A stretch of 42,424 nt of DNA from Gemmatimonadota bacterium (GTDB lineage: Bacteria; Gemmatimonadota; Gemmatimonadetes; Gemmatimonadales; GWC2-71-9): assembly GCA_039931815.1 (NCBI GenBank), contig JBDTRF010000002.1, positions 1 to 42,424 on the forward strand, in the 5' to 3' direction. This document shows, piece after piece, positions 1 through 34,734 of the stretch. The notes beneath the pieces are model-generated. The model saw nothing but the letters and a program-made list of their open reading frames with translations. It did no database searches and was not told the DNA's origin. The position numbers were made by a program, and so were the translations under genes. Every line of letters starts with the position of its first letter. Positions within the stretch are counted from its first letter, which is position 1.

Positions 1-737
1 TCGGTGATCGGGATCTGCCAGACCCAGCTGTTGGTGATGGGCAGGAAGTGGACATAGATGTAGTCCCCCTTCTGCTGCTCGCCCTTCATCGTCGACAAAC
101 GGTCATAATTGTCGAACCAGGTGTGAATGGCGTACTGATCGAACACCTTGTCCATGATCTTGAGTTTGAGCCGATTGCCGAGAAACGTCTTCCGTCCGCT
201 CGCGTCTGCGACAATCTTGCAGGTGACACTGGATTCAACCGGCCCGATCATGAACTTCATGCGCGGAAATGGACCGCTGAAATCGACATCCCTGACACCA
301 ACGCCCTCTACCACGGTGGCACCCAGGCTCTGCGCGTGCTGCAGCAGCAGGTTGTCGAACTTGCCGCGATCGACGTGGTACGTGTAGTTCTGCTCTACCC
401 CCGCCTGCTTCCGCTCCTCGAACCGGATGTCGGCGACGCAGTCGGCTTCCAGGCCATCCCACCCGTGCTCATAGGCCCGATTGCCGCCGGTGGCAGTCCA
501 GACGGCGCCAAACTTGTGGGGAAATTTTGCTTTCTCCATGACGGGGAGAAAATCGAGATCCCGAAAGACCCGGGTCGAGGAAGGCACCAGGGATTCGCCG
601 ACATGATGGCGGGGAAAGAGGTCTCGCTCGAACACGATGACCTTCTTGCCCGCCTTGGCGAGATACGAGGCTAGTGCGCCGCCCGCTGGGCCGCCGCCGA
701 CAATACCAACATCGAAATCCGGCTGTTCGTGCATCAT
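1..737 (-). CDS. FADH2-dependent halogenase, PltA-like (N-terminal 245 codons; the gene runs off the left edge and is absent from the supplied ORF track)
   Basis: Minus-strand ATG at 737-735. Own translation: MMHEQPDFDVGIVGGGPAGGALASYLAKAGKKVIVFERDLFPRHHVGESLVP..KFPHKFGAVW..YHVDRGKFD..IVADASGR..YVHFLPITNSWVWQIPIT, open to nt 3. It has a GxGxxG FAD fold, Lys75 at the position of the catalytic Lys of flavin halogenases, and a WxWxIP signature at nt 9-26. It runs nearly collinear with my recollection of pyoluteorin PltA. The + ORF 48-674 is its antisense shadow. Confidence 0.8.
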   Translation of the reverse strand, partial: MMHEQPDFDVGIVGGGPAGGALASYLAKAGKKVIVFERDLFPRHHVGESLVPSSTRVFRDLDFLPVMEKAKFPHKFGAVWTATGGNRAYEHGWDGLEADCVADIRFEERKQAGVEQNYTYHVDRGKFDNLLLQHAQSLGATVVEGVGVRDVDFSGPFPRMKFMIGPVESSVTCKIVADASGRKTFLGNRLKLKIMDKVFDQYAIHTWFDNYDRLSTMKGEQQKGDYIYVHFLPITNSWVWQIPIT

Positions 738-773
738 GGTCTCCTCAAATGCGTGATGGAGGCGTGTAATCGT

Positions 774-2093
774 TCAGGCGACCGGAGTTCCCCCGGTTTT
801 GCCAATCAGGCTTTCGGGGCCAAACGTAGCGGCATCCTCGGGATTCTCACCCGCCGCGGAAAGGATGCGCTCAAGGTCCATACGCTCATACCCTCCGCTC
901 AGCAGCACGATAAATCGCTCGCGCAGCAGGGGGATCTGGCGGGCCCGGCTGATGATGTTGTTAGCTTCCTTCTTGTCGAGAATGCTGTACCAGTTGTAGA
1001 TCATCCGGAAAATCGACAGCATCGGATGCTTGATCCGCTTTTCGTATGGCCGCAGCCGTTCGGCGCTGAAGTCGTTGTGCTTGAAACAATCGAGAATGCA
1101 CTCGGCCGAATACACTCCGGCGCGAGTGGCAAGCGTCACGCCCGCCGAGAAAATCGGGTCTACGAACATGGCCGCATCCCCGATGAGGACGAAGCCGTTC
1201 CCGACGAAGGATTCATTGAGATATGAAATGTTGGAAATGGTATGCATCTGCATTTCCTGTTTCGCGCCCTGCAACCAGTCCCGAATCTTGTCACATTTCG
1301 AGATCGCGTAGTCAAACCGCTCCTGCGGCCCCTTGATGTGGCCGGCCCACTTGGCGTCCAGCACGGCTCCCACGCTGACCACGTCCCCGCTCAGCGGGAT
1401 ATACCAGATCCAGCCACCCTCAATGGTGTGGATGTCGGTGGCGGTCGAGTTGGGAAGGATATCCGATACGTTGGTGAGCACGTCCCGCTGATCGCGGCGA
1501 TAGCCGCCATGGAAGTGGGTGAAATGGGCAATCTTGTTGAGCGCGGGATCGGGCTTTCTCCAGCCCATGCGGCGTGCGATAAGGCAATCACGGCCGGTCG
1601 CATCGACGACCATTTTCGCCTCGATCCGATGCGGTTCTTCCCCGTTGGGGCCAGCCAGGACACCCACGGCCCGGTCCCCCTCGAACAACACTTCCTTGAC
1701 CGTCCATTCTTCCCGGACTTCGGCGCCACGCTTGCGGGCATTGTTCAGCAGGATCTCGTCAAACTTCGCCCGTTCGACATGGTACGCGTAGGTTCGTCGG
1801 AACACCTCGGGGTATTCGGCCGTGAGGAGCTTGACATCCTCAGGCTGGTTGAACATCCCGAACATGATGCCCTGTTTGGGAGGGAACCCCGCGCTCTCGA
1901 TGGCCGGGACGGCCCCAATCTTCTCCCACAAGTCCCAAATCCCGGGAAGGAGAGACTCACCGATATGGAACCGGGGAAAGCGTTCCCGTTCGAGCACCAG
2001 GACACGCAGGCCCTCGGGGGCGAGCATGGCTGCCGAGCTCGAGCCACCGGGTCCTCCTCCCATGATGACCACGTCAAACTTTTCGACCTTCAT
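774..2093 (-). CDS. FADH2-dependent halogenase family protein (second, divergent copy)
   Basis: Track ORF 774-2183, with the start trimmed to ATG 2093 (MKVEKFDVVIMGGGPGG; GGAG about 8 nt upstream). Motifs: GxGxxG, HIGESLLP, a conserved Lys in GFPPKQG, GGWIWYIP (WxWxIP, nt 1395-1412) and FVDPIFSAG. Confidence 0.8.
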   Translation of the reverse strand: MKVEKFDVVIMGGGPGGSSSAAMLAPEGLRVLVLERERFPRFHIGESLLPGIWDLWEKIGAVPAIESAGFPPKQGIMFGMFNQPEDVKLLTAEYPEVFRRTYAYHVERAKFDEILLNNARKRGAEVREEWTVKEVLFEGDRAVGVLAGPNGEEPHRIEAKMVVDATGRDCLIARRMGWRKPDPALNKIAHFTHFHGGYRRDQRDVLTNVSDILPNSTATDIHTIEGGWIWYIPLSGDVVSVGAVLDAKWAGHIKGPQERFDYAISKCDKIRDWLQGAKQEMQMHTISNISYLNESFVGNGFVLIGDAAMFVDPIFSAGVTLATRAGVYSAECILDCFKHNDFSAERLRPYEKRIKHPMLSIFRMIYNWYSILDKKEANNIISRARQIPLLRERFIVLLSGGYERMDLERILSAAGENPEDAATFGPESLIGKTGGTPVA

Positions 2094-2525: not shown

Positions 2526-3677
2526 ATGGATTTCTCCTGGTCGAGCGAACAACTCGAATTCAGGCAGGCGGTCATCGATTTTGCCCATAAGGCCCTGCAG
2601 GACGACCTGATCAGCCGGGACCGGACCAGCGAATTCTCCCGCCGGATGTGGTCCCGATGTGGCGAGTTCGGCATCCAGGGCCTCCCCTTCCCCGAGGAAT
2701 ACGGGGGCGCCGGAAGCGACATCCTGACCACCATCCTGGCCATGGAAGCGCTGGGATATGGCTGCAAGGATAACGGCCTGCTCTTTGGTCTGGCCGCCCA
2801 GATGTGGAGTGTCCAGATGCCAATTTTCAAGTTTGGCTCGGATGCGGCCAAGGCAAAATACCTCCCTCTTCTCAATCGTGGGGAATGGATCGGTGCCCAT
2901 GGCATGAGCGAACCCGACTCAGGGTCCGATGCCTTTGCACTCCGGACCACGGCTGAGCGCCAGGGGGAGACGTACGTGCTGAACGGGACCAAGACTTTTG
3001 TAAGCAACGGGCCCGCCGCGGACCTTTTCCTGATCTTCGCCTCAATGGACCGAAGCAAGGGTTTTCTGGGCTTGACGGGCTTCCTGGTCGAACGCTCGAC
3101 GCCAGGCTTAACCGTGAGCAAAGAGATCGAGAAAATGGGCCTGCGCACTTCTCCCATGGCCGAAGTCGTCATGGATGGGTGCGTTATTCCTCTGGAGAAT
3201 CGGATTGGCCGAGAAGGTCGAGGAGGAGCGGTCTTTAATGATTCAATGGAGTGGGAGCGAGGCTGCATTCTGGCGAGTTACCTCGGGTCGATGGAGCGTC
3301 AACTGGAAACCTCCATCCGGTATGCCCAGGAGCGCCGTCAATTCGGGCATCCCATTGGACAGTTTCAGTCCGTCGCTAACAAGATGGTGGATATGAAGGT
3401 GAGGATGGAGACCGCCCGGCTGATCCTGTACAAAGCGGCGTGGAGCAAACAGCAGGGGACCGGCGCCCACCAGGGCGAGGATGCTGCCATTGCCAAACTC
3501 TACCTGAGCGAAGCCTGGGTAAAGTCCTGCCTCGATGCAGTTCAGATCCACGGTGGCTACGGGTTTACCACCGAATATGAAGTGGAACGGGATCTCCGAG
3601 ACTCGGTCGGGGGGACCCTCTATTCGGGCACGTCCGAGATCCAGAGAACCCTGATCGCCCGCCACCTCGGGCTCTAG
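2526..3677 (+). CDS. Acyl-CoA dehydrogenase family protein, probably acting on a carrier-protein-bound acyl or aminoacyl substrate
   Basis: 383-aa ORF with AGAGG upstream of the ATG. ACAD motifs present: GMSEPDSGSD, IHGGYGFTTEY and a C-terminal YSGTSEIQR. The canonical C-terminal catalytic Glu (YEGT) is Ser367 here, while Glu244 (MEWER) sits at the isovaleryl-CoA dehydrogenase-type base position. Confidence 0.85.
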   Translation: MDFSWSSEQLEFRQAVIDFAHKALQDDLISRDRTSEFSRRMWSRCGEFGIQGLPFPEEYGGAGSDILTTILAMEALGYGCKDNGLLFGLAAQMWSVQMPIFKFGSDAAKAKYLPLLNRGEWIGAHGMSEPDSGSDAFALRTTAERQGETYVLNGTKTFVSNGPAADLFLIFASMDRSKGFLGLTGFLVERSTPGLTVSKEIEKMGLRTSPMAEVVMDGCVIPLENRIGREGRGGAVFNDSMEWERGCILASYLGSMERQLETSIRYAQERRQFGHPIGQFQSVANKMVDMKVRMETARLILYKAAWSKQQGTGAHQGEDAAIAKLYLSEAWVKSCLDAVQIHGGYGFTTEYEVERDLRDSVGGTLYSGTSEIQRTLIARHLGL

Positions 3678-3994
3678 GCCACGTGGTGTGGGCAAATCGC
3701 AACATGCGGGGTAATTATCGGCCAGAATCAGCCGGATAAGACCACGGTAAATCATTACTACAAATTAGGTTACACTTAATTGTGATGCTGCTCACACCGT
3801 GGCACGGTGGTAGCAGAAACGGGTCAGGCTATCAGTCCCAGGTAGGCAGGGTACGTCAGAGCGCCGGCCGCGCGACTGTCACTGGAATATTTCCAGATCC
3901 GCCGACCAGCACCTCCATTTCACATTCGATGCACATGGCGTCTCCGCGATGGATCGGAGCCGCAGGGAAACGTGCTACTCAAGGAACCAGAGCC

Positions 3995-6508
3995 ATGACG
4001 GTTGGGAGTCTCACCGCCACGCCAGGCGAGGAAGTTCGCAGCCGGACGGCGTTGATCGAGGCCATTCGCCTGCTGGGGCTCTCGGCCCAGCTTGGCCTGG
4101 CCCTGCTCGTTATCCGCCTTTTTCATTTCGAGGGTCCGGCATTTAACCGGATGATCCTGCTGGCGTCGGCTGGCTTTGTGATCAATGCCGTCCTTCCACG
4201 CGCGCTTCGCCAGCCCTGGTTTATTCTGATCTCGCTGCTTGGCATCGGCGTGATTTTCGGGCTGCACGATGGGCTGTGGATGATCGGGATCGGCCTCGGT
4301 CTCATCGCGGTCTGCCATCTGCCAATGTCCTGGTGGTCCCGGGTTACGCTCGTCATTCTCGCGGGTGCCGGTCTGGCGGCCACGCGCATCGGCTGGCTCA
4401 CGCTGCCCTTCTCGCTCTCCGTGTGGCCGGTGCTGGGTTCGATGTTCATGTTTCGCCTGATGGTGTACCTCCACCACCTGCGGCACAATCCGACCAAAGT
4501 CTCGCCCCAGCGGGCGCTGGCCTACTTCTTCATGCTTCCCAATGTCTCGTTCCCCCTCTTCCCCGTGGTGGACTACAAGACGTTCGACACGACCTACTAC
4601 GATCAGGATGCGTACAAAACCTACCAGGCTGGCCTCCGCTACATCGCCCGGGGTTTGCTTCACCTCCTGATTTATCGCTACGTGTATTACTACGTCGCCA
4701 GAGATCCCGCCGAAGTGTCCAACCTGGGCGACCTGATGTTGTACGTTATTTCCACGTACCTCGTCTATGTCCGGGTATCCGGTCAATTTCACATTATTGT
4801 CGGCGTCCTCCACCTGTACGGCTGGAGAATGCCACCCGCGAACAATCTCTACTTCCTGGCCTCCGGCTTCACCGAGATCTGGCGCCGGAATAACATTTAC
4901 TGGAAAGACTTCATGATGAAGCTGGTGTACTATCCCAGCTTTTTCCGGTTTCGCAAATATGGCGGGACCATGGCGCTGATCGGCGCGACCATCCTGGTGT
5001 TCTTCCTCACCTGGCTGCTCCATTCCTACCAGTGGTTCTGGATTCGGGGCGAGTTCCCCATTACCCAGACCGACATTGCCTTCTGGGGGGCGATCGGCGG
5101 GTTCATGCTGTACGAAATGCTGCGCGAGAGCCGGAGGACCGCGGCCGGCGTTCGGGCCTCGGTTGTCCGCCGATGGAGCCTGGCGCGCGCGCTCCGCACC
5201 GTCGGGTTCTTCGCCCTCTTTTCGACCCTGTGGGCCCTCTGGGACAGCTCATCGATTGGCGATTTCGTTTCCCTCTGGGCCATGGCCACCCGCTTTGACA
5301 CTCACACGCTCGTCCTGGCCGGGGGAATCCTGGTCGCCGCGCTGATTTTCACTGGTTTTCCCTGGACTGTCCAGAGTCTCAAACCCCAGGCGACAAGCAC
5401 GTCCATCTGGGCGCGACAGGATGTTCAGACGGTGAGCCTGTGCGCCGGGCTTCTGCTCATCGGTATGCCAGGCGTTACCAACCTGTTCGGTCACTCCGTG
5501 ACTCAGTTCACCCAGTCTCTTCGCGAAACAAAGCTCAACGAGCGCGATGCGGCTTCCCAGCATCGCGGCTACTATGAGCAGCTCAACGTGCATACCAGTG
5601 CGGCGGACGGCGGCGAGTTGCGCCAGGCGAACGCGGATCGCCCCCAGGACTGGGTACCGTTGACCCAGACCGCGGTCTACCGCGAGCTCGATACGTTCCT
5701 CGGTGGCGAGCTGGTACCCCGGTCTCACGCCGACTTCAAGGGAGAAGTCCTCAACATCAATCGTTGGGGCATGCGCGATCGTGATTATACGGTTAACAAA
5801 CCAGCAGGAACCTACCGAATCGTCATCCTCGGGCCTTCGGATGTCATGGGTGCCGGAGTAGCCGACTCCCAGACCTTCGAGAACCTGGTCGAGGATCGGC
5901 TCAACCAGGCATCCCATGCTGGCGGCCGTCGGTATGAGATCCTGAATTTTTCCGTCGTGTCGTACAGCATGCTGCAACAGATGCAGATGCTCACCGAGCG
6001 GGTCGTCAGGTTCCAGCCGGACATGATTCTTGTTTCCTACCATCCGATTTCCGAATCACGCTTCTCGTTTCAATACCTGGCGAACCTTGCCCGTTTTGGG
6101 AAAGAGATTCCGTACCGGGAGCTGAAAGACATCGTGAAGCGGTCGGGAGTTCGCCGTGGCATGCAGCAGCCTGACGCCTTCCGCCGGATGAAACCGTTCG
6201 GCCCCGAGTTAGTGCAATGGGCGCTCGGCCGGGTCAAAGCCATGGGCGATTCCCTCGCAATCCCTGTCGGGATGTTCGTTCGCGACTTGCCGGCAGAGCG
6301 CTCGGAAATACCGAACGCGTCCATCGATTATGCCCGCACGACGGGGTTTCACATCTTCGACGTCCGGGGGATTTACGACGGACACGACCCGTCAACTCTG
6401 CTCCTCGCCTCCTGGGACAAGCACCCCAATGCACTGGGTCATCGCCTGATAGCCGATCGCCTCTTTGATGAGATGGTCGCTGACTCGACACTCAAGCTGA
6501 TTCCTTAG
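3995..6508 (+). CDS. MBOAT-family membrane acyltransferase fused to a C-terminal SGNH/GDSL-like domain (paralog 1)
   Basis: Track ORF 3782-6508. The start was moved to ATG 3995 (AAGGAA upstream) because the N-terminus then aligns with paralog 2. The protein is polytopic. Divergent MBOAT core: VSGQFHIIVG..FTEIWRRNNIYWKDFMMKLVYYP..TWLLHS, with Asn (nt 4892-4894) and His (nt 5021-5023) 43 residues apart. C-terminal SGNH-like blocks: RIVILGPSDVMGAGV, YEILNFSV and WDKHPNALGH. Confidence 0.75.
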   Translation: MTVGSLTATPGEEVRSRTALIEAIRLLGLSAQLGLALLVIRLFHFEGPAFNRMILLASAGFVINAVLPRALRQPWFILISLLGIGVIFGLHDGLWMIGIGLGLIAVCHLPMSWWSRVTLVILAGAGLAATRIGWLTLPFSLSVWPVLGSMFMFRLMVYLHHLRHNPTKVSPQRALAYFFMLPNVSFPLFPVVDYKTFDTTYYDQDAYKTYQAGLRYIARGLLHLLIYRYVYYYVARDPAEVSNLGDLMLYVISTYLVYVRVSGQFHIIVGVLHLYGWRMPPANNLYFLASGFTEIWRRNNIYWKDFMMKLVYYPSFFRFRKYGGTMALIGATILVFFLTWLLHSYQWFWIRGEFPITQTDIAFWGAIGGFMLYEMLRESRRTAAGVRASVVRRWSLARALRTVGFFALFSTLWALWDSSSIGDFVSLWAMATRFDTHTLVLAGGILVAALIFTGFPWTVQSLKPQATSTSIWARQDVQTVSLCAGLLLIGMPGVTNLFGHSVTQFTQSLRETKLNERDAASQHRGYYEQLNVHTSAADGGELRQANADRPQDWVPLTQTAVYRELDTFLGGELVPRSHADFKGEVLNINRWGMRDRDYTVNKPAGTYRIVILGPSDVMGAGVADSQTFENLVEDRLNQASHAGGRRYEILNFSVVSYSMLQQMQMLTERVVRFQPDMILVSYHPISESRFSFQYLANLARFGKEIPYRELKDIVKRSGVRRGMQQPDAFRRMKPFGPELVQWALGRVKAMGDSLAIPVGMFVRDLPAERSEIPNASIDYARTTGFHIFDVRGIYDGHDPSTLLLASWDKHPNALGHRLIADRLFDEMVADSTLKLIP

Positions 6509-6540
6509 CGAACCCGCTATTTGCGCAGGAAAGGTCTGGT

Positions 6541-9084
6541 ATGGCGACAGGCGCAATGGTCGTCGCTCGAGAGCGGGCGACTCACCTCCTCAACTGGACG
6601 ACCCTGAGCCGACTGCTGGCGACCACCCTGCAGTTAGGGCTTGCCGTGCTGATTGTTCGCCAGTTCCAGATCGAAAGCCGGGCCTTCTACAACCTGTCCC
6701 TGCTGGTCCTCGGCGGCTTCGTCCTTCATGTCGCGCTTCCCGCAGTGTACCGGCTGCCCTTTTTTGCGCTCCTCTCCCTGACGGGTACACTGGTCGTGCT
6801 GGGCATTGGAAACGGGCTCTGGGTGTTGGGATTGGGCGGGCTCCTCCTGGTGCTCTGCCACTTGCCCGCCCGGTTTGGTCTCCGCCTGGGCCTGATTCTT
6901 GGAGCCGCAATCCTCCTCGCTGCTTTTCGCACCCGGTTATTGCCCTCGGGCATTCCACTGGCAATCTGGCCTGTCCTGGCCTCGATGTTCATGTTCCGGA
7001 TGGCCATCTACCTGTACGATCTGAACCATTCGGAGAAGGCCGGCAGTCCAGCCCAGATCATAGCCTACTTCTTCATGCTTCCGAACACGGCATTCCCCCT
7101 TTTTCCTGTCGTGGACTACAAGACGTTCATCCGAACCTACTACGACGAGGACGAGTGGCAGATTTACCAGCGCGGGATGCAATGGATCCTCCGTGGCCTG
7201 CTCCATCTCATCGCCTATCGCCTGGTCTATCACTATCTCACGCTTGACCTGGCGGAGGTACGAACCGGACCGCAGGTCATCGAGTATATTTTTTCCTCAT
7301 TCATTCTGTACCTGCGCGTTTCAGGCATGTACCACATCGCCGTCGGCATCCTCCACCTGTTCGGTTTCCGGCTTCCCGAAACGAATCACTTCTGGTTGTT
7401 CTGCCAGAGCTTCACCGATCTCTGGCGGCGGATGAATATCTATTTCAAGGATTTCATGATGAAGCTGGTGTATTACCCCAGCTTCTTTCGCCTTCGCAGG
7501 ACGGGAAATCGGAAAGCCATCGCCCTGGCGCTTGTCGCGGTGTTTGTCATGACGTGGGCGCTCCACGCGGTGCAGTGGTTCTGGCTGCGAGGCGGCCTGT
7601 TGCTCACCTTCCAGGATATGCTTTTCTACGTCATCCTCGGATCACTGGTTATTTACCAGTCCCTCAAGGAAGCGAAACCGGGCCGCCGTCGGATGACCGA
7701 TACAGGCCAGGCCGGCTGGAGCGCCAGGCGGTCGCTCAACGCCTTCCTCACCATGGGCCTCCTCATGACCGTCTGGTCGTTCTGGACGGCGGACTCGGTG
7801 GATCAGTGGCTCGCGATGTGGTCCACGCTATCAGTCTGGCCGGCGAGGGGCACCGCGATCGTGGCCGTTTCCCTCATCGGCTACCTGGCGATGGCCGGGC
7901 TACCCTGGAGAGCGCCGGACCTGTCAGCCAGGAAACCGGCAGGACTCTTTCGCCCCGCCTTGCTGACGACCGGAGCGCTTTCCCTCATCTTTGTCGTCGG
8001 GCAGCCTCGGATCTATCAACGCCTGAGTCCCAGGACGGTGGCGGTGGTTCAGACGATCCAGGAGAATCGTCTCAACCAGCGGGACAATGCCATTCTCCTC
8101 CGCGGCTACTATGAAAAAGTGGACAACGGTAATCAGCTGGGAAGCCAGCTGTGGGAGGTCAAGGAAGGCGAACCCGATAACCTCCGTATCACCGAAACCG
8201 CCGCGTTTCGGGGGCGCGACGATTTCCTGGGTGGGGAGCTGATTCCGTCCATCAGCACGGTGTTCAAGGAACGGGAATTCCAGACCAATCGATGGGGAAT
8301 GCACGACCGTGATTACGAGCACGCCAAGGCGCCGGGAACCTGGCGCGTAACCCTGCTGGGACCATCCGATGTGATGGGCCCCGGTGTTGGGGAGGGCGAA
8401 ACGTTCGAAGCCCTGGTCGAGGAACGGCTCAATCGCGAACACCGTGGTGACAGGCACCAGCGCTACGAAATCCTCAACTTCGGCGTTGCCGCGTTTACGC
8501 TTCCTCAGCAGGTTGCCATGCTGGACCAGCGGGCACTCGAATTTGATCCTGACGCGGTTATGATCACCTTTCATCCTGCTTCCGACCCGCCTACCGCACT
8601 GCGTTATGTTACGGGCGCCGTCCTTCGCGGCACGGAGATTCCTTATCCGGAACTTCAGGGCTACATCCTGAAATCCGGGGTCACCCGTACGACCCGGGAA
8701 GCCAGCGCCAAGCGCCAGCTTTGGCCTTACGCCAACGCCATGCTGGAATGGAGTTTCCGGCAGATGGCCGAGGCCTGTCGCGCGCGGGGAATTCCGATCG
8801 TGCTGCTGGTCCTGGATGCCATCAACGAGCCTTCGGATCCTGAACAGCCGCTGATCCGCTACGCCGACAGCCTGGGTTACATCGTCGTTGACTTGCGAAA
8901 TGCGCCGAAAGGTCACGATCCCGGGAGCCTGATGCTGGCCGAGTGGGATCGCCACCCCAACAAGCTGGGCCACCGGCTGCTGGCCGATGCCCTGTACGGA
9001 CAGCTGGTTTCCCTCGGCGATACACTGGGACTCGGGCTCAAACCAACATCCACAGTTTCCCTTACCAACCAGGAGGAGCAGTGA
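6541..9084 (+). CDS. MBOAT-family membrane acyltransferase fused to a C-terminal SGNH/GDSL-like domain (paralog 2)
   Basis: 847-aa ORF with AGGAAAGG upstream of ATG 6541. Collinear with paralog 1: FFMLPN.(A/S)FPLFPVVDYKTF, VSGMYHIAVG, FTDLWRRMNIYFKDFMMKLVYYP, TWALHA, then RVTLLGPSDVMGPGV, YEILNFGV and WDRHPNKLGH. Its stop TGA 9082-9084 overlaps the GTG start of the next gene. Confidence 0.8.
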   Translation: MATGAMVVARERATHLLNWTTLSRLLATTLQLGLAVLIVRQFQIESRAFYNLSLLVLGGFVLHVALPAVYRLPFFALLSLTGTLVVLGIGNGLWVLGLGGLLLVLCHLPARFGLRLGLILGAAILLAAFRTRLLPSGIPLAIWPVLASMFMFRMAIYLYDLNHSEKAGSPAQIIAYFFMLPNTAFPLFPVVDYKTFIRTYYDEDEWQIYQRGMQWILRGLLHLIAYRLVYHYLTLDLAEVRTGPQVIEYIFSSFILYLRVSGMYHIAVGILHLFGFRLPETNHFWLFCQSFTDLWRRMNIYFKDFMMKLVYYPSFFRLRRTGNRKAIALALVAVFVMTWALHAVQWFWLRGGLLLTFQDMLFYVILGSLVIYQSLKEAKPGRRRMTDTGQAGWSARRSLNAFLTMGLLMTVWSFWTADSVDQWLAMWSTLSVWPARGTAIVAVSLIGYLAMAGLPWRAPDLSARKPAGLFRPALLTTGALSLIFVVGQPRIYQRLSPRTVAVVQTIQENRLNQRDNAILLRGYYEKVDNGNQLGSQLWEVKEGEPDNLRITETAAFRGRDDFLGGELIPSISTVFKEREFQTNRWGMHDRDYEHAKAPGTWRVTLLGPSDVMGPGVGEGETFEALVEERLNREHRGDRHQRYEILNFGVAAFTLPQQVAMLDQRALEFDPDAVMITFHPASDPPTALRYVTGAVLRGTEIPYPELQGYILKSGVTRTTREASAKRQLWPYANAMLEWSFRQMAEACRARGIPIVLLVLDAINEPSDPEQPLIRYADSLGYIVVDLRNAPKGHDPGSLMLAEWDRHPNKLGHRLLADALYGQLVSLGDTLGLGLKPTSTVSLTNQEEQ

Positions 9085-9344
9085 CCAACGACGAGATCAT
9101 GCGAACGGTGAAGGAATACATTCTCAAGACATTCCTTCCCGGAGAAGACCCCAAGGCGTTGACCGAGAGTACGCAGCTCATCACCGGCGGCGTCCTGGAC
9201 TCGCTGGCGACACTGGAGCTGGTTTCGTTTATCGAGCAGCAATACGGGATTGAACTCCAGGCGCACGAAGTCGACGCGGCAAACCTGGGAACCCTGCCGG
9301 CCATCGCGGCCCTGGTACAATCCAAGGTGGTCGCCCGCACGTGA
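9081..9344 (+). CDS. Small acyl/peptidyl carrier protein, DltC-like
   Basis: In-frame GTG 9081 lies just after AGGAGGAG (9071-9078), overlapping the upstream stop as GTGA. ATG 9099 is an alternative start. Phosphopantetheine site GGVLDSLATLELV (Ser codon 9201-9203). The pattern G.LDS..T.EL...IE..Y.I resembles DltC. About 87 aa. Confidence 0.8.
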   Translation: MTNDEIMRTVKEYILKTFLPGEDPKALTESTQLITGGVLDSLATLELVSFIEQQYGIELQAHEVDAANLGTLPAIAALVQSKVVART

Positions 9345-10909
9345 GCGATACCACGTTGCACCGGATGATGGAAACCGCGGCGCACCGGTTCCCCGATCGC
9401 ACCGCGGTAGATGATCCTGGCAAGGGTACGATGACCTACCAGGACCTGGCGCGCCTGTCAGATAAGCTTCGTGACAGGCTGGCCGGGATGGGGGTGAAGC
9501 CGGGAGATCGTGTCGGTCTCTACATGGCCAAATCCATTGACGCCATCGTATCCATCTTCGGCATTCTGAAGACTGGCGCAGCCTACGTGCCGGTTGATCC
9601 GGGCGCCCCCGCTCCCCGTTGCGCCTACATTCTCAACAACTGCTCCGTACGTGTCATTATCACTGAACGACGCCTGGCGGATGAGCTGACGGGGGAGCTG
9701 ACCGCCCTGGGGTCGGTGCCACCGCTCTTCATCATCGATGAGCCCCGCGACGGGGTTCTGCCTCTGTCACGACTGCTCCAGGCGGAGGACGAGAAAAACC
9801 CGGCGCCCGTAGTCGCCAGCGCCGATCCCGGACCCGACGGCCTGGCGTATATCCTTTATACGTCGGGATCGACCGGCAAGCCGAAGGGCGTCATGCTGAC
9901 CCACCGCTGTGCGGTCAGCTACGTCGATTGGTGCTCGGCCGTTTTTCTCCCCACTCCGGAAGACCGCTTCTCCTCACACGCCCCGCTTCACTTTGACCTC
10001 TCGATCCTCGACATCTACGTCCCGCTCAAGCACGGCGCGACGCTGATCCTGATTGGCGAGGAACTGGGGAAGGACCCGCTCAATCTCGCTCCGCTGATCG
10101 CGGAGAAGCGCATCACGGTATGGTACTCGACGCCTTCGATTCTGAGCCTGCTGGCGCAGTACGGCAAACTTGCCCGCCACGACTATTCCGCACTCCGATT
10201 TGTCTTTTTTGCGGGCGAGGTCTTTCCAGTACCGCAGCTGCGCGCGCTGCACGCGCTCTGGCCTCATCCCCGTTACTTCAATTTGTATGGCCCCACCGAG
10301 ACGAACGTGTGCACCTATTACGAGGTGCCTGCCCAGATACCGCCGGAGCGCACGGAGCCATTCCCGATTGGAAAGACCTGTGAGCACCTCGAGTGCAAGG
10401 TGGTCGACCTGGACGGATCGACTGTACCGCGGGGCGCGGAGGGAGAGCTGGTCGTGTGGGGACCCGGCGTCATGATCGGATACTGGAATCTCCCGGAACA
10501 GAACGCCGCAGCCTTCATGGTCGACCCCGATGGCAAGAAATGGTATCACACGGGAGACCTGGTCGTGGAGGAGCCGAACGGGGACTATATCTTCCACGGA
10601 CGGCGGGACCGGATGGTGAAGCGGCGTGGCTACCGGGTCGAGCTGGGCGAGATTGAGGCCGGCCTGGCGACCCATCCGCAAGCGAAAGAAGTGGCCGTCG
10701 TGGCGCTACCCGACAGAGACGCGGGAGTAAGGATCAAGGCATTCCTTTCCATCAAGAACGGAAAGGCGCCGAGTATCATCGAGATGAAACAGTTTTGTAT
10801 GGAAACGTTGCCGAAGTATATGGTACCCGACGTGTTTACCTTTCTCGAAGCGCTGCCAAGGACCTCGACCGACAAAATAGACTATCAGAAACTTAAAGAA
10901 ACCAACTGA
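9341..10909 (+). CDS. Stand-alone amino-acid adenylation enzyme (ANL superfamily; DltA/PltF-like carrier-protein ligase)
   Basis: GTG 9341 overlaps the carrier-gene stop as GTGA. NRPS A-domain cores are present: LAYILYTSGSTGKPKG (A3), HFDLSI (A4), NLYGPTE (A5), GELVVWGPGVMIGYW (A6), YHTGDL (A7), GRRDRMVKRRGYRVELGEIE (A8), LPKYMVP (A9) and TSTDKID (A10). There are no C, T or TE domains. Confidence 0.9.
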   Translation: MSDTTLHRMMETAAHRFPDRTAVDDPGKGTMTYQDLARLSDKLRDRLAGMGVKPGDRVGLYMAKSIDAIVSIFGILKTGAAYVPVDPGAPAPRCAYILNNCSVRVIITERRLADELTGELTALGSVPPLFIIDEPRDGVLPLSRLLQAEDEKNPAPVVASADPGPDGLAYILYTSGSTGKPKGVMLTHRCAVSYVDWCSAVFLPTPEDRFSSHAPLHFDLSILDIYVPLKHGATLILIGEELGKDPLNLAPLIAEKRITVWYSTPSILSLLAQYGKLARHDYSALRFVFFAGEVFPVPQLRALHALWPHPRYFNLYGPTETNVCTYYEVPAQIPPERTEPFPIGKTCEHLECKVVDLDGSTVPRGAEGELVVWGPGVMIGYWNLPEQNAAAFMVDPDGKKWYHTGDLVVEEPNGDYIFHGRRDRMVKRRGYRVELGEIEAGLATHPQAKEVAVVALPDRDAGVRIKAFLSIKNGKAPSIIEMKQFCMETLPKYMVPDVFTFLEALPRTSTDKIDYQKLKETN

Positions 10910-11057: not shown

Positions 11058-12026
11058 TTAACGGTCCACCCACTTCTCCTCTCCTGCCAGGTCCCGCGGC
11101 CGAGCCCAGAAGTACCAGAGACGAGGCGCCCGGACAATGCGTTCTTTCATATCCTCCGCAACCTGATGGGCCCGTCCTCGCAGCATCAACCCCGTGCTCG
11201 CCGGCGTGAGCGACGATTGGTAACCAAATTGCCGCATGACAGGGCCAGCCACGGTTTCGATCAGGCGGATCTGGTCCGGAGAAAGCTGGTCCTTCCACGC
11301 TCCTGATCGATCCTTGCTCAAGGCACCCTGGGCCCGCTCGAACCAGGGCTTGTCGGTTTTCGCTGGCTTCCCCGCATCAAGCATTATGGGGGTAAAAGGT
11401 TCGTTGATGAACCGGCAGATCTCTTCCAGCCCGGCTTCCGGGTTCGCGACAAGGTCCTCGTAGCGAATTCTCAGGTAGCGAGGATTCCCGTTCGATTTCT
11501 CGGCCGCCAGCGTGAGGCTCACCCAGAGCGCCGCATTAGCGGCCGCACTGCGACGTCCCCAGGGCACGTTGAACAACGAAGCGGTAACATCGCGAGGATC
11601 GCGGAGGAGATGGATGACGCGCCCCTCTGGATACCACTCGAGTAACTCGGCGGTATTCCACGCGTGGTGCGGGGTCTTCTCTCCGGGCCGAACCTTCCAC
11701 TGGGAATCCGCGTAGAATTGAATAACGCTGGCAAAGAAGGCCTGGTAGTCGGTTCCTTCGAGCATCAGGCGATCGCGGAGCGCATCAAGGTCCAGCTTGA
11801 GGCGCCGCATTCGTGACGTGGCGAAATAGCTGTCGATCAGGCGGCGGCGGTTCGATTCCTCGGCGAGGTCGCCGAAGGCTTTGCGCCGGATAAACACGTA
11901 ATAGAAGAAATACGTCTCGTCGCAGAGCCCGATACGAGGATGCCGGTTGAGCATGGCCCGCAGGAGGGTGGTTCCGCTGCGGGGAGCGCCAACGATGAAG
12001 ATTGGTTCAAAACGGGCAGTAATCAT
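11058..12026 (-). CDS. Sulfotransferase family protein
   Basis: 322-aa ORF. It has a 5'-PSB loop (FIVGAPRSGTTLL) and a 3'-PB motif (IHLLRDPRDV), typical of PAPS-dependent sulfotransferases. Confidence 0.8.
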   Translation of the reverse strand: MITARFEPIFIVGAPRSGTTLLRAMLNRHPRIGLCDETYFFYYVFIRRKAFGDLAEESNRRRLIDSYFATSRMRRLKLDLDALRDRLMLEGTDYQAFFASVIQFYADSQWKVRPGEKTPHHAWNTAELLEWYPEGRVIHLLRDPRDVTASLFNVPWGRRSAAANAALWVSLTLAAEKSNGNPRYLRIRYEDLVANPEAGLEEICRFINEPFTPIMLDAGKPAKTDKPWFERAQGALSKDRSGAWKDQLSPDQIRLIETVAGPVMRQFGYQSSLTPASTGLMLRGRAHQVAEDMKERIVRAPRLWYFWARPRDLAGEEKWVDR

Positions 12027-23457: not shown

Positions 23458-25125
23458 TCACTTCGAGCGCATCACCACAATGTCCCCACCACCTACCGTC
23501 CCCGGGAAATTGGCCGCCAGGGTATAGTGCTCCTGGATCCGTGCCCAGATCTCCGGCTCTACCACGGCGAGCCGGATGGGGAAGGTGTAGACCAGCCAGG
23601 TTCGGGTATGCTGCGCTTCGATTTCCCTGAGCACCGACAGGCTATCCACGGGCAGGTAGCTCGTGTGATAGAACTCGTGATAGGGATACCGGGTCAAATC
23701 GACGGTCACAACGGCGTCCGTGGCCCCGGCTTCCCGACTCAGGAATGTGCTCGCCCCGGTGTAGTCCTGCTTGGGACCCCAGGCCTTGGGGACGGTGATA
23801 GCGCTGGCGCAGATAACCAGAATCGTCCCGACAGGAGCGAGCACCCGAAATCGGGGTGGCAGCAGCCATTCAACCAGGGCATAGCCGCCCCGGATCAGAA
23901 TCAACACCCCGAATCCGGCAGAGAAGAAAAAGAATCGGGGCCACAGATTGTGCTTGAGCGCAATCAGCGCGAGGCCGCTCAGCACCGCCGGGAGCAGCAT
24001 GGTAACGAGACCAGCCCTGGTTCGCTTCCAGTAGCTGATGATTCCAGCCGCGATGACCACGAGCCCGAGTGCAAGGGTGATCCATCCACCCGGAATGCCT
24101 TCTCCCAGGCCCCGAAGCGATTCGGTCAGAAACCAGAGCGGGCTCTGCCAGGCAGTCTGCGCCGCTCCCCTGGGCGGATGAAGCACCGTGGCGAACATCT
24201 GCGGCAGCACGATCGCATACAGCTGCAGCGTGATCGTCGCCGCGAAGAGAATCCCCCATCCCGGCAACCACGCATCAAACCCGCGCGGGCGCTGCTTCAT
24301 GCGAAAGAGAAGCACGACCCAGATCAGGAAATGCGCGACCGAGACAATGACCGCGGTGATATGGGTGTAGGCCGCAAGGCCCATACACAGGCCATAGACG
24401 ATGGCCACCCCCCACGGATGACGGTACCGACCCGTCACCATGCGGATAAATGCCGCGCTCGCCAGCAGAGTCCAGAGCAGAAGCCCGGTGTATCCACGGG
24501 CGTTCTGGGAAAACCAGACATGATGGTACGAGAAGGCCAGAAATGCAGCGGCCAGCAAGGCTTCCGCTCGTCCCGTGATCAGCCGGGCGAAATAGTACAC
24601 CGCCCATACACTGGCAACACCGAACACCGCCGCCGGCAATCGAAGTGCACCGGCACTTTCTCCAAAAATGCTGATCGAGCAGCGAGCCAGCACCGAATAC
24701 AGCAGGTGCTGATTCTGGCTGTCATACGTCGTCAGGACCCGCCCCATCGGCAGCCGGACGTAGTCGACGAGGGTCTGGATCTCATCAAACCAGAGGCCGT
24801 TCGGCAAATCGTACAGCCGAAGCAGCAGGGCGACCAGAAGTATCGCCGCCAGGGTCGCCAGCTCCCAGCGACTGGCGCGTTGAAATGGCTCATCGGCAAA
24901 CGACGCCAACGCAGTGCCGCGCACATTCTTAAGCCCCAACCGCGGAATAATGATGAGAATCGCGGCGTGCAGCAGCAGCATGCCTTTGAGGCACCATACC
25001 CCATTTTGCACGGTGGCGAGCATCGCCGACCCTCCGCCGACCAGAAAGGCCGCGGTGGCATGGACCGGCAGGGCCAGACCGAGCAGGATCAGCACGGCGG
25101 CAAGGGCGATGCTAGTTCGTGACAT
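23458..25125 (-). CDS. GT-C glycosyltransferase, ArnT/PMT-like (GT39/GT83-type)
   Basis: 555-aa polytopic ORF. The first-loop LWFDE motif is typical of polyprenyl-phosphate-sugar-dependent GT-C enzymes, and there is a soluble C-terminal domain. Confidence 0.75.
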   Translation of the reverse strand: MSRTSIALAAVLILLGLALPVHATAAFLVGGGSAMLATVQNGVWCLKGMLLLHAAILIIIPRLGLKNVRGTALASFADEPFQRASRWELATLAAILLVALLLRLYDLPNGLWFDEIQTLVDYVRLPMGRVLTTYDSQNQHLLYSVLARCSISIFGESAGALRLPAAVFGVASVWAVYYFARLITGRAEALLAAAFLAFSYHHVWFSQNARGYTGLLLWTLLASAAFIRMVTGRYRHPWGVAIVYGLCMGLAAYTHITAVIVSVAHFLIWVVLLFRMKQRPRGFDAWLPGWGILFAATITLQLYAIVLPQMFATVLHPPRGAAQTAWQSPLWFLTESLRGLGEGIPGGWITLALGLVVIAAGIISYWKRTRAGLVTMLLPAVLSGLALIALKHNLWPRFFFFSAGFGVLILIRGGYALVEWLLPPRFRVLAPVGTILVICASAITVPKAWGPKQDYTGASTFLSREAGATDAVVTVDLTRYPYHEFYHTSYLPVDSLSVLREIEAQHTRTWLVYTFPIRLAVVEPEIWARIQEHYTLAANFPGTVGGGDIVVMRSK

Positions 25126-25357
25126 TCAAAGGCTTAGGAGGCCGGGATGCTACGGAATCGTGCCCGGTACAGAGCAATGTCCGTTCCAGTGATGCCCCTT
25201 GGGGGATCGGTAGGAATGCACTAAGATGTGTGGCGACACCGCAACAAACAAGGTACCAATGCCCGTCGCGACGTCTAGCATCTATCCTGCTGATACCGGC
25301 AAGGTGCAGGATCTGGGCGGCCGGTTCTCGAATTTCCCCCTCATTTGAAGCGCTCGT

Positions 25358-27205
25358 ATGAAACCAGGGTCCGACCCAGGCGCGGAACCAGTCACGGTTA
25401 ATGTCGCCAGCCCTACAGGAGCCAGGTTCTGGATTCCGGTCGGGGTGGCGGTTTCCGCCTGGCTGACGTATGTGCTGACCCTCGAAATGCGAAACCCCCG
25501 ACTGGTCGCGTCATGGCATGGGTTCCTTCATACTGCCATCGCCAATCGGTTCCCGACGTCAGCCTGGATTCCCGAGAATCCCTTCTTTGCGGGCGAGCCT
25601 TTACGCTACTACTGGGTTTTTCACCGTGGAGCTTCCGCGCTCTCCCGAGGATTGGGGGTAGACCCCCTCTCGGCGCTCCGAATGCTCACCCTGGTCGGAT
25701 TGGTGCTCCTCGTCGGCTTCGCCTTCCTTATTGGGCGACGGGTCTGCCGTTCAACCGGCGCCGGGTTTCTCATTGGATTCCTGGCGCTTGCGGGGCTCAA
25801 CCCTTTGGGACCGGCCATCGCCATCGCACGGCACGAGACGCAGGGTCTGATCCTGCTTGAGAAGGAGGCTGGAGCCCCGTCGGTGGAGACGGTGTTTACC
25901 GGGAACGAGGCCGCCGATCAGTTCATGGGGAGGAATCTCCTGGGTGCGATGTACTTCTCCACCGACTGGAGACACGGCGAGAACATTGTCTGGTTCTTCG
26001 ATATTTCGTCGAGAGGTCTTTCCCTCGCCGCGCTGTTGGCCCTGGTCCTCCTCGTGTTACCGCCCGAACGCGGCGCGTTTCGACTGGTCCTGATTGGCGT
26101 GACCACGGCCCTGCTTGCCGCGCTCAACCCTATCGTGGGCCTGGCGAGCGCCATGATGCTCGGATTCTCCCTTCTTTTTATCGACGCGATGGATTTGCGG
26201 CGGGCAACGGGAAAATTCGGCCTCCCATCCCGATCACTCATCATGACGGTCGGGGCGCTGGCCCTGGGAGTGATTCTCGCCGTTCCGACTTTTTACCACC
26301 TCTTCGCCAGCGGCGGGGGCGGCACCTCGATCAACCCCCCGGGAGTGATCGCGATGAAGCTGGTCAACATGGGGGTCAATTTCATCGTCCTGCTTCCGCT
26401 TGCCTTGCTGTCCACCCGGGTCCAACTACCCGGCCTCACCACCATCCTTCGTGCCTTCGTGGTGACGGCAGGACTGCTCCTGATCATCATGCTCACCGTT
26501 CACCTCGAAGAAGGCAACGAGCACAACCTGACCAACACCGCCCAGGTCCTGCTGGCTCTGCCCGCCGTCGTCGCGCTCGCGTTTCAGCGGAACGGCAGGC
26601 CGCGGAGGAATCGAGCCGCCATATTCGCGGTGACAACCGCGGCCTTCCTTCCCGTGACCGCTGCCACCTGGGTCGCGTTCGATGGTCGGCCCGCGCTCCC
26701 GTTTCAGGCCGCTCATGGTGTGCTGGAACGGACCCCATCGAACGCCCCCCTTGCCGAACTCTATCGCTGGATCATGCGGGAAACCGGGCGCGATGCGGTG
26801 TTCGTCGTTGACCCCTCGGAGCCCGTGAAAATGTCCGGCAACGTGTCCGAGCTGCCGGCGTTTACCGGTCGATCACTCCTTACCGACCAGCCCAGCTATC
26901 TCACGACGCCCTACCCCGATTCCCCGAGGCGTACGGCCATCGCGTTGGCGATGGTGCACGGTGAGAAACTGACGGCCCCCGACTCGGCATATCTTTGGCG
27001 GCTGGCAAGGCCAGCTTCGCATAACGCTCGCGAGATTGACGTGATTACATATCATGCTGACCACGGTGACCTGATGGACACGCTCGAGTTGCGCTATGGA
27101 CCCGCACGATTCCACCAGGGCTTTACCGCCGTCTTCTCCTATGACTCCGGCGGCAACCGGATACATTCCGACTCAACCGGTGCAAACGGAGCTCGCGGAC
27201 AATGA
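25358..27205 (+). CDS. Polytopic membrane protein with a soluble C-terminal domain; candidate GT-C arabinosyltransferase or polymerase
   Basis: 615-aa ORF from ATG 25358 with at least 10 hydrophobic helices, directly upstream of the UbiA/DprE1/DprE2 cassette on the same strand. I recognised no family motif; the function is inferred from context. Confidence 0.45.
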   Translation: MKPGSDPGAEPVTVNVASPTGARFWIPVGVAVSAWLTYVLTLEMRNPRLVASWHGFLHTAIANRFPTSAWIPENPFFAGEPLRYYWVFHRGASALSRGLGVDPLSALRMLTLVGLVLLVGFAFLIGRRVCRSTGAGFLIGFLALAGLNPLGPAIAIARHETQGLILLEKEAGAPSVETVFTGNEAADQFMGRNLLGAMYFSTDWRHGENIVWFFDISSRGLSLAALLALVLLVLPPERGAFRLVLIGVTTALLAALNPIVGLASAMMLGFSLLFIDAMDLRRATGKFGLPSRSLIMTVGALALGVILAVPTFYHLFASGGGGTSINPPGVIAMKLVNMGVNFIVLLPLALLSTRVQLPGLTTILRAFVVTAGLLLIIMLTVHLEEGNEHNLTNTAQVLLALPAVVALAFQRNGRPRRNRAAIFAVTTAAFLPVTAATWVAFDGRPALPFQAAHGVLERTPSNAPLAELYRWIMRETGRDAVFVVDPSEPVKMSGNVSELPAFTGRSLLTDQPSYLTTPYPDSPRRTAIALAMVHGEKLTAPDSAYLWRLARPASHNAREIDVITYHADHGDLMDTLELRYGPARFHQGFTAVFSYDSGGNRIHSDSTGANGARGQ

Positions 27206-34721: not shown

Positions 34722-34734
34722 GGCCGAAAGGAGT

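Follow-up and report, generated by a model that had tools for sequence, protein, structure and literature searches.

Tandem MBOAT-SGNH fusion proteins encoded with a proline-to-pyrrole type carrier-protein cassette in a Gemmatimonadota polysaccharide locus

We analysed a 42,424-nucleotide stretch of DNA from a Gemmatimonadota bacterium (assembly GCA_039931815.1, contig JBDTRF010000002.1, positions 1 to 42,424 of the forward strand; this whole stretch is called the window), and in particular two consecutive genes that each encode an MBOAT-like membrane domain and an SGNH-like domain in one polypeptide. These fusion genes are part of an operon in the order dehydrogenase, fusion 1, fusion 2, carrier protein and ligase. 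The two fusion genes are separated by 32 nt, the second is followed after 14 nt by the carrier-protein gene, and the start of the ligase gene overlaps the carrier-protein stop by 4 nt. Two tandem halogenase genes lie upstream in divergent orientation, and locus L001, one of the related loci used for comparison, also has two (Table 1).

Table 1. Features of the fusion operon and its flanks, and the predicted topology of the paralog 2 membrane domain. Nucleotide positions count from the first base of the window.
Feature	Coordinates	Strand or direction	Basis or detail
Halogenase 2, N-terminal ~245 aa, PltA/Mpy16-type, FADH2-dependent; gene cut by window start	1..737	-	ATG 737-735
Halogenase 1, FAD-dependent, carrier-protein-tethered-substrate class	774..2093	-	Pfam Trp_halogenase, E 5.5e-33
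Prolyl-S-carrier-protein dehydrogenase, acyl-CoA dehydrogenase fold	2526..3677	+	PDB and NCBIfam
Sigma-54-type -24/-12 promoter motif TGGCACGGTGGTAGCA	3800..3815	+	180 nt upstream of paralog 1
Paralog 1, MBOAT-SGNH fusion, 837 aa, ATG start	3995..6508	+	Open reading frame, BLASTP, family alignment
Paralog 1, N300	4892-4894	+	
Paralog 1, H343	5021-5023	+	
Paralog 1, Y526/Y527	5570-5575	+	
Paralog 1, S615	5837-5839	+	
Paralog 1, D808	6416-6418	+	
Paralog 1, H810	6422-6424	+	
Paralog 2, MBOAT-SGNH fusion, 847 aa, ATG start	6541..9084	+	AlphaFold2, Foldseek, hhalign, loop-charge topology
Paralog 2, N299	7435-7437	+	
Paralog 2, H342	7564-7566	+	
Paralog 2, Y523/Y524	8107-8112	+	
Paralog 2, S609	8365-8367	+	
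Paralog 2, D803	8947-8949	+	
Paralog 2, H805	8953-8955	+	
Paralog 2, MBOAT part	residues ~1-507		
Paralog 2, predicted basic tip RLRRTGNRK	residues 319-327	inside	
Paralog 2, predicted helix with H342 near far end	residues 323-350	inside to outside	
Paralog 2, predicted uncharged loop	residues 351-356	outside	
Paralog 2, predicted helix	residues 357-378	outside to inside	
Paralog 2, predicted loop	residues 379-394	inside	four Lys/Arg
Paralog 2, predicted helix	residues 395-416	inside to outside	
Paralog 2, predicted helix	residues 435-452	outside to inside	
Paralog 2, predicted loop	residues 453-469	inside	three Lys/Arg
Paralog 2, predicted helix	residues 470-486	inside to outside	
Paralog 2, linker	residues 508-555		
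Paralog 2, SGNH part	residues ~556-830		
Carrier protein, 81 aa	9099..9344	+	Ser35 phosphopantetheine site in GVLDSL, 9201-9203
PltF-like L-proline adenylating ligase	9341..10909	+	Pfam AMP-binding, PltF match
Sulfotransferase, first gene of adjoining glycan-assembly region	11058..12026	-	Pfam

Comparison of the two fusion proteins by BLASTP gave 327 identities over 807 positions (41%), with 61% positives, 8 gap positions and E = 0, in an alignment that is collinear from residue 25 to residue 829 and far above chance. A first-pass annotation of the window had described the two as consecutive paralogs, collinear over their whole length, and this description was borne out. The six blocks that it listed as shared (FFMLPN..FPLFPVVDYKTF, WRR.NIY.KDFMMKLVYYPSFFR, RWGM.DRDY, LGPSDVMG.GV, YEILNF and WD.HPN.LGHRL) were found in both proteins, and the Asn (AAC, N300) and His (CAT, H343) codons of paralog 1 lie exactly where it had placed them, 43 residues apart. 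For statements on the family we used an alignment of 45 members with the residue numbers of paralog 2. Residues N299, H342, Y523, Y524, S609, N646, D803 and H805 are invariant in all 45 sequences.

An AlphaFold2 model of paralog 2 was built from the 45-sequence alignment, with a mean predicted local distance difference test score of 84.1 and a predicted template modelling (TM) score of 0.76. Foldseek comparison of this model with the PDB placed DltB (8jem, 6bug) first, at E 9e-8 to 3e-7 and a target-normalised TM score of 0.58, followed by HHAT (target TM 0.56) and then by TesA-type SGNH esterases, with DGAT1 and LPCAT3 lower. A resemblance to DltB had been anticipated from the sequence, and DltB is indeed the top match. 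We also aligned the fusion family with canonical AlgI-type MBOATs using hhalign. The comparison profile comprised 28 PF03062 homologues gathered from a canonical MBOAT encoded in locus L022 (3794-5275, + strand), a Limnobacter metagenome-assembled genome, where this gene, whose product ends in FIYFNF, lies about 5 kb upstream of a fusion gene, so that this single locus holds both a classical and a fused system.

The two profiles aligned over 326 columns with a probability of 91.5% and an E of 8.6e-7. In this alignment SFTDLWRRMN299IY is paired with NISEFWRRWH290MT, so that N299 stands opposite the canonical H290, TWALH342 is paired with GLWH330G, with H342 opposite H330, and the SG(M/Q)(Y/F)H265 block is paired with FSGYSD. 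The pairing of WRRxN299 with FWRRWH agrees with the earlier remark that the usual FW.RWH.SLS motif is replaced in these proteins. The hallmark of MBOATs, an invariant His in a membrane helix with an Asn, His or Asp 30-50 residues upstream, is seen in H342 and N299, which are 43 residues apart. The first catalytic position is Asn in eukaryotic MBOATs and His in DltB and AlgI, the DltB pair being H289/H336 (PMC11035591). Because of the ranking of the predicted fold and the hhalign match, we regard the N-terminal half, as judged from profiles and a model, as a true but very divergent MBOAT.

The C-terminal half of the model matched TesA-type structures of the SGNH fold at target TM scores of 0.70-0.75. 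The Pfam model Lipase_GDSL_2 matched 40 of the 45 family members at E<1, with a best value of 1e-8, and the two window proteins scored 24.4 and 18.1 bits, under the gathering score of 32.9; the SGNH assignment is thus upheld for the family by its profile, and the window proteins themselves fall short of the threshold. The block I Ser is S609 in GPS609DVMG.GV, and N646 lies in the LN646FG sequence of the block II region. The Ser-first order of the blocks and the DxHPN form of block V are as the first-pass annotation described them. Its description of this half as DltD-like fared less well. The DltD model (PF04914) matched neither the window proteins nor any of the 45 members, the PatB and AlgX models were likewise unmatched, and DltD, PatB and AlgX structures were all absent from the top 50 Foldseek matches of the paralog 2 model. 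The domain is therefore a generic GDSL_2/TesA-type SGNH domain outside the DltD family, and the term 'DltD-like' can be kept only as a functional analogy.

The topology of the C-terminal part of the paralog 2 membrane domain was predicted from its helices and from the positive-inside bias of the loop charges (Table 1). In all solved MBOATs the catalytic His is on the extracytoplasmic or luminal side (PMC11035591). Because the loop charges alternate, and with the His orientation of the solved MBOATs adopted, we infer that the linker (residues 508-555) and the SGNH domain are located on the outer side of the membrane, where the His342 end of its helix also lies. Roughly four additional membrane helices and a flexible linker would connect the MBOAT with the SGNH domain. 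The proposal that a membrane-transfer step and an extracytoplasmic transfer step are fused in one protein is thus supported by Foldseek, hhalign and the loop charges, and the last of these also agrees with the outside location proposed for the SGNH domain.

In bacterial MBOAT/SGNH relays the acyl group passes from the MBOAT His to a Tyr and then to the SGNH Ser, with Dlt and PatAB as precedents, and the shuttle Tyr lies in an FxYxxF motif, found either at the MBOAT's C-terminal end (PatA, AlgI) or in the microprotein DltX (PMC12148441). None of the small open reading frames of the window has a DltX-type motif at its end. In the segment that connects the final membrane helix of the fusions with the SGNH domain, the only invariant residues are L511, D515 and G522-Y523-Y524-E525, and the stretch from L511 to E525 lies in a low-confidence, probably flexible segment of the model. 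From conservation and position alone, we propose Y523/Y524 as a candidate acyl shuttle.

We then considered the enzymes encoded alongside the fusions. The best single-domain PDB match of the ligase was PltF (6o6e), at 350 bits compared with about 214 bits for DltA, and in the pocket region PltF scored 154 bits and the next match 101 bits. The scores of the ligase with DltA models were 274-284 bits, short of the cut-offs set for these models (476 and 560 bits). The Stachelhaus positions, in GrsA numbering, were mapped on the PltF pocket alignment; read in this way, the specificity code of the window ligase is DLLYFALVC, and that of PltF and of 49 of the 62 cassette ligases in other loci is DLLYLALVC. 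The difference falls at residue 289 (Stachelhaus 299), which is Phe in the window ligase and three relatives and Leu in PltF and those 49. Other cassette ligases carry Asn or His at Stachelhaus 299, or His or Phe at 239.

The carrier protein matched 6cxt_A best among PDB sequences (E 2.6e-7), followed by PigG and, more weakly, by DltC and PltL. Its nearest counterparts are Bmp1-ACP and PigG. The chain 6cxt_A is the small chain co-crystallised with the dehydrogenase 6cxt_B. We also considered a role as acyl carrier protein (ACP) for OlsHI, since the NCBIfam model 'ACP for OlsHI' scored 94 bits (cut-off 130). The OlsH/OlsI ornithine-lipid pathway has neither an MBOAT nor an SGNH protein, and this candidate was therefore set aside as general carrier-protein similarity. 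The dehydrogenase is closest to the prolyl-ACP dehydrogenase AnaB (4irn; 475 bits, E 1.5e-141), with further PDB matches to 6cxt_B (337 bits) and to 5zw0, an L-prolyl dehydrogenase acting on a peptidyl carrier protein (327 bits). Among NCBIfam models it scored 453 bits with PigA and 422 bits with RedW, the next family reaching 315 bits. The equivalog cut-offs of PigA and RedW, 500 and 650 bits, were not reached, which places the enzyme in the same clade and not as a proven orthologue.

Of the halogenases, the truncated halogenase 2 matched Mpy16 (5buk) at 282 bits and PltA (5dbj) at 272 bits over 241 aa (phmmer against the PDB). The best PDB matches of halogenase 1 were CndH (3e1t) at 208 bits and PltA at 188 bits; it keeps the GWxWxIP motif and, in PPKQG, the catalytic Lys, which stands opposite that of CndH and PltA in the alignment. 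All components of a thiotemplated pyrrole cassette are present, namely a ligase with a proline code, a carrier protein, a prolyl dehydrogenase and a carrier-dependent halogenase. By these affinities, the partner genes point to conversion of proline to a pyrrole-2-carboxyl group that would be halogenated on the carrier protein. The PltA/Mpy16-like halogenase argues for a pyrrole in the Gemmatimonadota lineage of the window only.

The fusions are widespread. There were at least 2542 matches in a 90%-clustered database, and 966 representatives at 50% identity (E <= 1e-30), almost all of them 830-900 aa long and matching end to end. The fusion is present in at least 568 species-level genomes and in more than 10 phyla, including Gemmatimonadota, Acidobacteriota, Chloroflexota, Planctomycetota, Verrucomicrobiota, Myxococcota, Calditrichota and KSB1; the carriers in Burkholderiales include Accumulibacter, Rhodoferax, Pseudothauera and Pelomicrobium. 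Among the carriers in culture are Pseudothauera rhizosphaerae CC-YHH848 (L034) and Pelomicrobium sp. G1 (L055). Linkage was counted in those 39 of the 82 loci in which the sequence extends for at least 6 kb to either side of the fusion. Of these 39, 37 had the carrier protein as a neighbour, 35 had the dehydrogenase and 33 the ligase; the full set of three occurred in 33. Halogenase homologues were found in 9 of these loci (16 of the 82 overall), and close homologues, 66-73% identical, occurred only in the Gemmatimonadota loci L004, L005, L033 and L072; matches elsewhere, L001 included, were 25-34% identical. In L084 (15632-19184) the cassette is immediately followed by genes for a radical SAM enzyme of the B12-binding type and for a Rieske ring-hydroxylating oxygenase with two subunits; instead of being halogenated, the acyl group on the carrier protein may be tailored by these enzymes there.

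This linkage bears on whether the fusions could be ordinary acetyl-CoA-dependent O-acetyltransferases, that is, fused AlgI/AlgJ-type pairs standing by chance beside an unrelated thiotemplated pyrrole cassette. Such an origin would suit the AlgI or DltB annotation that many family members carry at the Joint Genome Institute, and acetyl-CoA is the donor of all characterised bacterial MBOATs except DltB (PMC12148441). A chance neighbourhood is, however, hard to reconcile with the recurrence of the partner genes at these frequencies in more than 10 phyla, or with operonic genes whose reading frames overlap or nearly abut. Moreover, L022 encodes, apart from its fusion, a canonical AlgI that ends in FIYFNF, and Pfam scans of the window found no polyketide synthase (PKS) or nonribosomal peptide synthetase (NRPS) that could consume the pyrrolyl-S-carrier protein. 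We consider this explanation very improbable.

The surroundings of the cassette concern the acceptor. A glycan region at about 11-38 kb of the window encodes five GT2 and three GT-C-type enzymes, a Wzx flippase, sugar-modifying oxidoreductases and a trio of a UbiA, a DprE1-like and a short-chain dehydrogenase/reductase (SDR) protein, as identified with Pfam, and it is probably the source of the acceptor. Contexts sampled elsewhere include a Wzm/Wzt locus with aminosugar genes, a PEP-CTERM/exosortase-type exopolysaccharide (EPS) locus and a Wzx/GT4 locus. The sulfotransferase gene adjoins that of the ligase and is syntenic in L001, L004 and L005, and the Gemmatimonadota loci syntenic with the window include genes for an alginate-export-type porin and for sulfate activation; the acceptor glycan may be sulfated. 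In L083 (1-6625), genes for adenosine phosphosulfate kinase, a phosphoadenosine phosphosulfate reductase-like protein and a sulfatase lie upstream.

The same transfer could also be directed to an acceptor other than a glycan, such as a lipid of the membrane, a protein (secreted or a lipoprotein) or a small molecule in the periplasm. MBOATs generally acylate lipids and proteins, and HHAT, DGAT1 and LPCAT3 are among the fold matches. DltB acts on a lipid-anchored polymer, and L086 has no obvious glycan genes in the approximately 10 kb downstream of the cassette. Most of the examined loci nevertheless lie inside glycan clusters, with flippases, glycosyltransferases, Wzm/Wzt or PEP-CTERM EPS genes, and the bacterial SGNH partners of MBOATs are glycan or teichoic-acid transferases (PMC12148441). 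A non-glycan acceptor is therefore unlikely in our judgement.

Other genes in the glycan region were observed as well. The UbiA prenyltransferase, the DprE1-like FAD oxidase (FAD_binding_4 and ALO) and the SDR protein (27282-30270, + strand, with 23458-27205 and 34735-36003) resemble the mycobacterial decaprenyl-phospho-arabinose donor pathway and adjoin GT-C enzymes (PMT_2, DUF2298, GT87). A 711-aa protein with a CofD (2-phospho-L-lactate transferase) domain is encoded within the locus (32655-34790, - strand). A 384-aa open reading frame at 39357-40511 (- strand) has a weak Lipase_GDSL_2 match (E 3e-4) and may be a further SGNH esterase or transferase.

Taken together, we put at roughly 60% the probability that the operon encodes a Dlt-like transmembrane route that installs a proline-derived pyrrole-2-carboxyl group, halogenated in this lineage, on an extracytoplasmic glycan. 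The PltF-like ligase would load L-proline on the 81-aa carrier protein in the cytoplasm, and the dehydrogenase would oxidise the prolyl group to give pyrrole-2-carboxyl-S-carrier protein, whose pyrrole would be halogenated by the two halogenases in this Gemmatimonadota lineage. The carrier protein would then dock at the cytoplasmic face of the MBOAT, and Asn299 and His342, at the bottom of an outward-facing funnel, would take the acyl group off the thioester. The receiver may be Tyr523 or Tyr524, the invariant linker residues that are candidate counterparts of the FxYxxF acyl shuttle. Ser609, with His805 and Asp803, would accept the acyl group and esterify an extracytoplasmic glycan from the surrounding polysaccharide locus, and the paralogs would probably handle different acyl variants or acceptor positions. 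The broader proposition, that a cross-phylum MBOAT-SGNH family esterifies glycans with carrier-delivered pyrrole-2-carboxyl groups, halogenated in some Gemmatimonadota, and that this is a previously unknown envelope modification, is put forward as tentative.

Several observations weigh against the proposed route. Pfam PF03062 and PF13813 had no match at E<1 in either window protein or in any of the 45 family members, the NCBIfam MBOAT models also did not match the fusions, and neither phmmer nor the HMMER family profile reached DltB among PDB sequences, the only hit being a weak SGNH match (E 0.0035). Judged by such models the MBOAT assignment of the first-pass annotation fails, and it is the hhalign and fold evidence that rescues it. 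In the 45-member alignment there is no conserved block III Asn (GxND) after strand 672-677, and block V is an invariant W-D803-x-H805-P-N, with DxH rather than DxxH. The FxYxxF motif is absent from the fusions, and GYYE does not fit it. Alignment of the last helices and linker with the canonical MBOAT C-terminus was not significant (hhalign E 0.045, probability 1%), and homology of GYYE with FxYxxF is therefore unproven. AnaB, the closest solved dehydrogenase, stops at a two-electron pyrroline product, short of the four-electron oxidation that gives a pyrrole, so that lineages without halogenases may use an acyl group other than a pyrrole. No acceptor was identified, and nearly all loci come from metagenome assemblies.

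The features of the SGNH domain also bear on a third explanation, in which the fusion moves a (halo)pyrrolyl group across the membrane and its SGNH domain hydrolyses it, so that the product would leave the cell as free (halo)pyrrole-2-carboxylic acid, or as a small ester, and polymers would stay undecorated. The DxH form of block V and the loss of the block III Asn are hallmarks of the AlgX/AlgJ O-acetyltransferases that partner MBOATs (PMC9487903), and fit AlgX-family transferases and not hydrolases, even though the closest SGNH structures found by Foldseek, TesA, LAE5 and Axe2, are hydrolases. Halopyrroles are typical diffusible natural products, PltA/Mpy16-type halogenases belong to the pathways that make them, and the missing acceptor would also be in keeping with secretion. 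Against this, the acid could be freed far more simply by a thioesterase in the cytoplasm, the cassette sits in polysaccharide loci across phyla, and every characterised MBOAT/SGNH pair is a transferase (PMC12148441). Release of this kind appears quite unlikely to us, and transfer to a glycan is the reading that we prefer.

Under glycan transfer, the presence of two paralogs requires comment. A neighbour-joining tree groups the clades of paralog 1 and paralog 2 as sisters within a wider clade, every member of which with an examined locus carries halogenases, and orthologous pairs occur on the same contigs in several assemblies. Both paralogs keep every family-invariant residue, and we therefore rejected the possibility that either is a degenerate copy without catalytic activity. 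Among the 28 positions fixed differently between the two clades, 22 are in the MBOAT half. One of the 28 is the residue that directly precedes the catalytic Asn: paralog 1 has Asn there and paralog 2 has Met, as against Ile elsewhere in the family. These differences fit subfunctionalisation at the donor side of the active site, with no particular division of labour evidenced. The first-pass annotation had guessed at different acceptors or acyl variants, and the occurrence of two halogenases beside two paralogs, together with clade-specific changes near the MBOAT active site, lends support to this guess; the duplication is compatible with different acceptors or differently halogenated acyl groups. 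Multiple fusions in one locus recur independently. In L043 (1560-9676), on an 11.8 kb contig of a Cytophagia metagenome-assembled genome, there are three tandem fusions and two carrier-protein genes, and no ligase or dehydrogenase was detected there.

Upstream of paralog 1, TGGCACGGTGGTAGCA is the sole match to TGGCAC-N5-TWGCW in the window, where 0.08 would be expected by chance, and L001, L004 and L005 carry the block unchanged in the corresponding intergenic region. By this motif, the fusion operon may be RpoN-dependent. A GTG at 3782 was considered as the start of paralog 1 and rejected as unlikely, because the conserved motif would fall within the extended reading frame. About 100 nt upstream of TGGCACGGTGGTAGCA, at approximately 3699-3705, an invariant GCAACAT block is common to the same three loci, and in L084 a sigma-54 activator is encoded in the EPS locus. 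A generic sigma-70 promoter and terminator scan of the window gave background levels only, and Rfam at gathering thresholds had no match anywhere in it.

According to PMC12148441, the picture in 2025 was of MBOATs with separate SGNH proteins, or of AT3-SGNH fusions, with Dlt as the sole carrier-protein-dependent case. In literature searches aimed at such systems, we found no description of a fused MBOAT-SGNH protein, a proline-derived donor or a pyrrole-carboxylated polysaccharide. The fusion family appears to depart from that picture in its fused MBOAT-SGNH architecture, in a carrier-protein donor outside Firmicutes and in an apparently proline-derived, aromatic heterocyclic acyl group. If the proposal is correct, the surface polysaccharides of bacterial lineages that abound in soil and wastewater (Gemmatimonadota, Acidobacteriota, Accumulibacter, Chloroflexota) would bear a new type of chemical decoration, one that could affect the properties of biofilm matrices, interactions with phages and predators, and antigenicity. 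It would tie halopyrrole chemistry of the 'natural-product' kind directly to the decoration of cell-surface polymers, and would offer a model of a self-contained MBOAT-to-SGNH acyl relay with an internal Tyr-Tyr shuttle; a single protein could serve as a simpler system for studying transmembrane acyl transfer. The family also marks an annotation gap, in that standard MBOAT HMMs (hidden Markov models) overlook a whole branch of the superfamily.

Among known systems, the Dlt pathway of teichoic-acid D-alanylation (DltA, DltC, DltB, DltX and DltD) likewise combines a ligase, a small carrier protein, an MBOAT and an extracytoplasmic SGNH protein, and the likeness extends to DltB as the best structural match of the N-terminal half and to Ser35 of the carrier protein in a DSL motif. 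Unlike Dlt, the fusion system has the MBOAT and SGNH domains in one polypeptide, no DltX-like open reading frame in the window, and a PltF-like ligase with a proline code in place of the D-alanine-specific DltA. It adds a dehydrogenase and, in this lineage, halogenases that would modify the acyl group. Where DltB has His289 as its first catalytic residue the fusions have Asn, the SGNH domain is not of the DltD family, and the hosts are diderm phyla in which the loci are polysaccharide loci.

PatA/PatB, AlgI/AlgJ/AlgX and WssH/WssI share with the fusions a homologous MBOAT core, an extracytoplasmic SGNH transferase and a polysaccharide-locus context, and the AlgX family also shares the DxH of block V. 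In these systems, however, the SGNH protein is separate and the donor is acetyl-CoA, whereas the two domains are fused here and the donor would be a carrier protein. PatA and AlgI carry a C-terminal FxYxxF, where the fusions have the internal, invariant GYYE as the only candidate. The SGNH motif order is circularly permuted in AlgX and AlgJ (PMC9487903), unlike that of the fusions, which shows no circular permutation, and PF03062 does not recognise the fusions. The AT3-SGNH proteins of the OatA/OafA type resemble the fusions in having, in one polypeptide, a membrane domain that translocates an acyl group followed by an extracytoplasmic SGNH domain, and in OatA a Tyr intermediate lies between the two domains (PMC12148441). 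They differ in that the membrane domain is AT3 and the donor acetyl-CoA, in place of an MBOAT fold and, presumably, an acyl-carrier-protein donor. Finally, the closest relatives of the ligase, carrier protein, dehydrogenase and halogenases are found in the pyrrole cassettes PltF/PltL/PltE/PltA, Bmp1-4, PigI/PigG/PigA, Mpy and AnaB/C/D. In those cassettes the enzyme that draws on the pyrrolyl-S-carrier protein is a PKS, an NRPS or a soluble cytoplasmic acyltransferase, whereas here the conserved partner is a membrane MBOAT-SGNH fusion.

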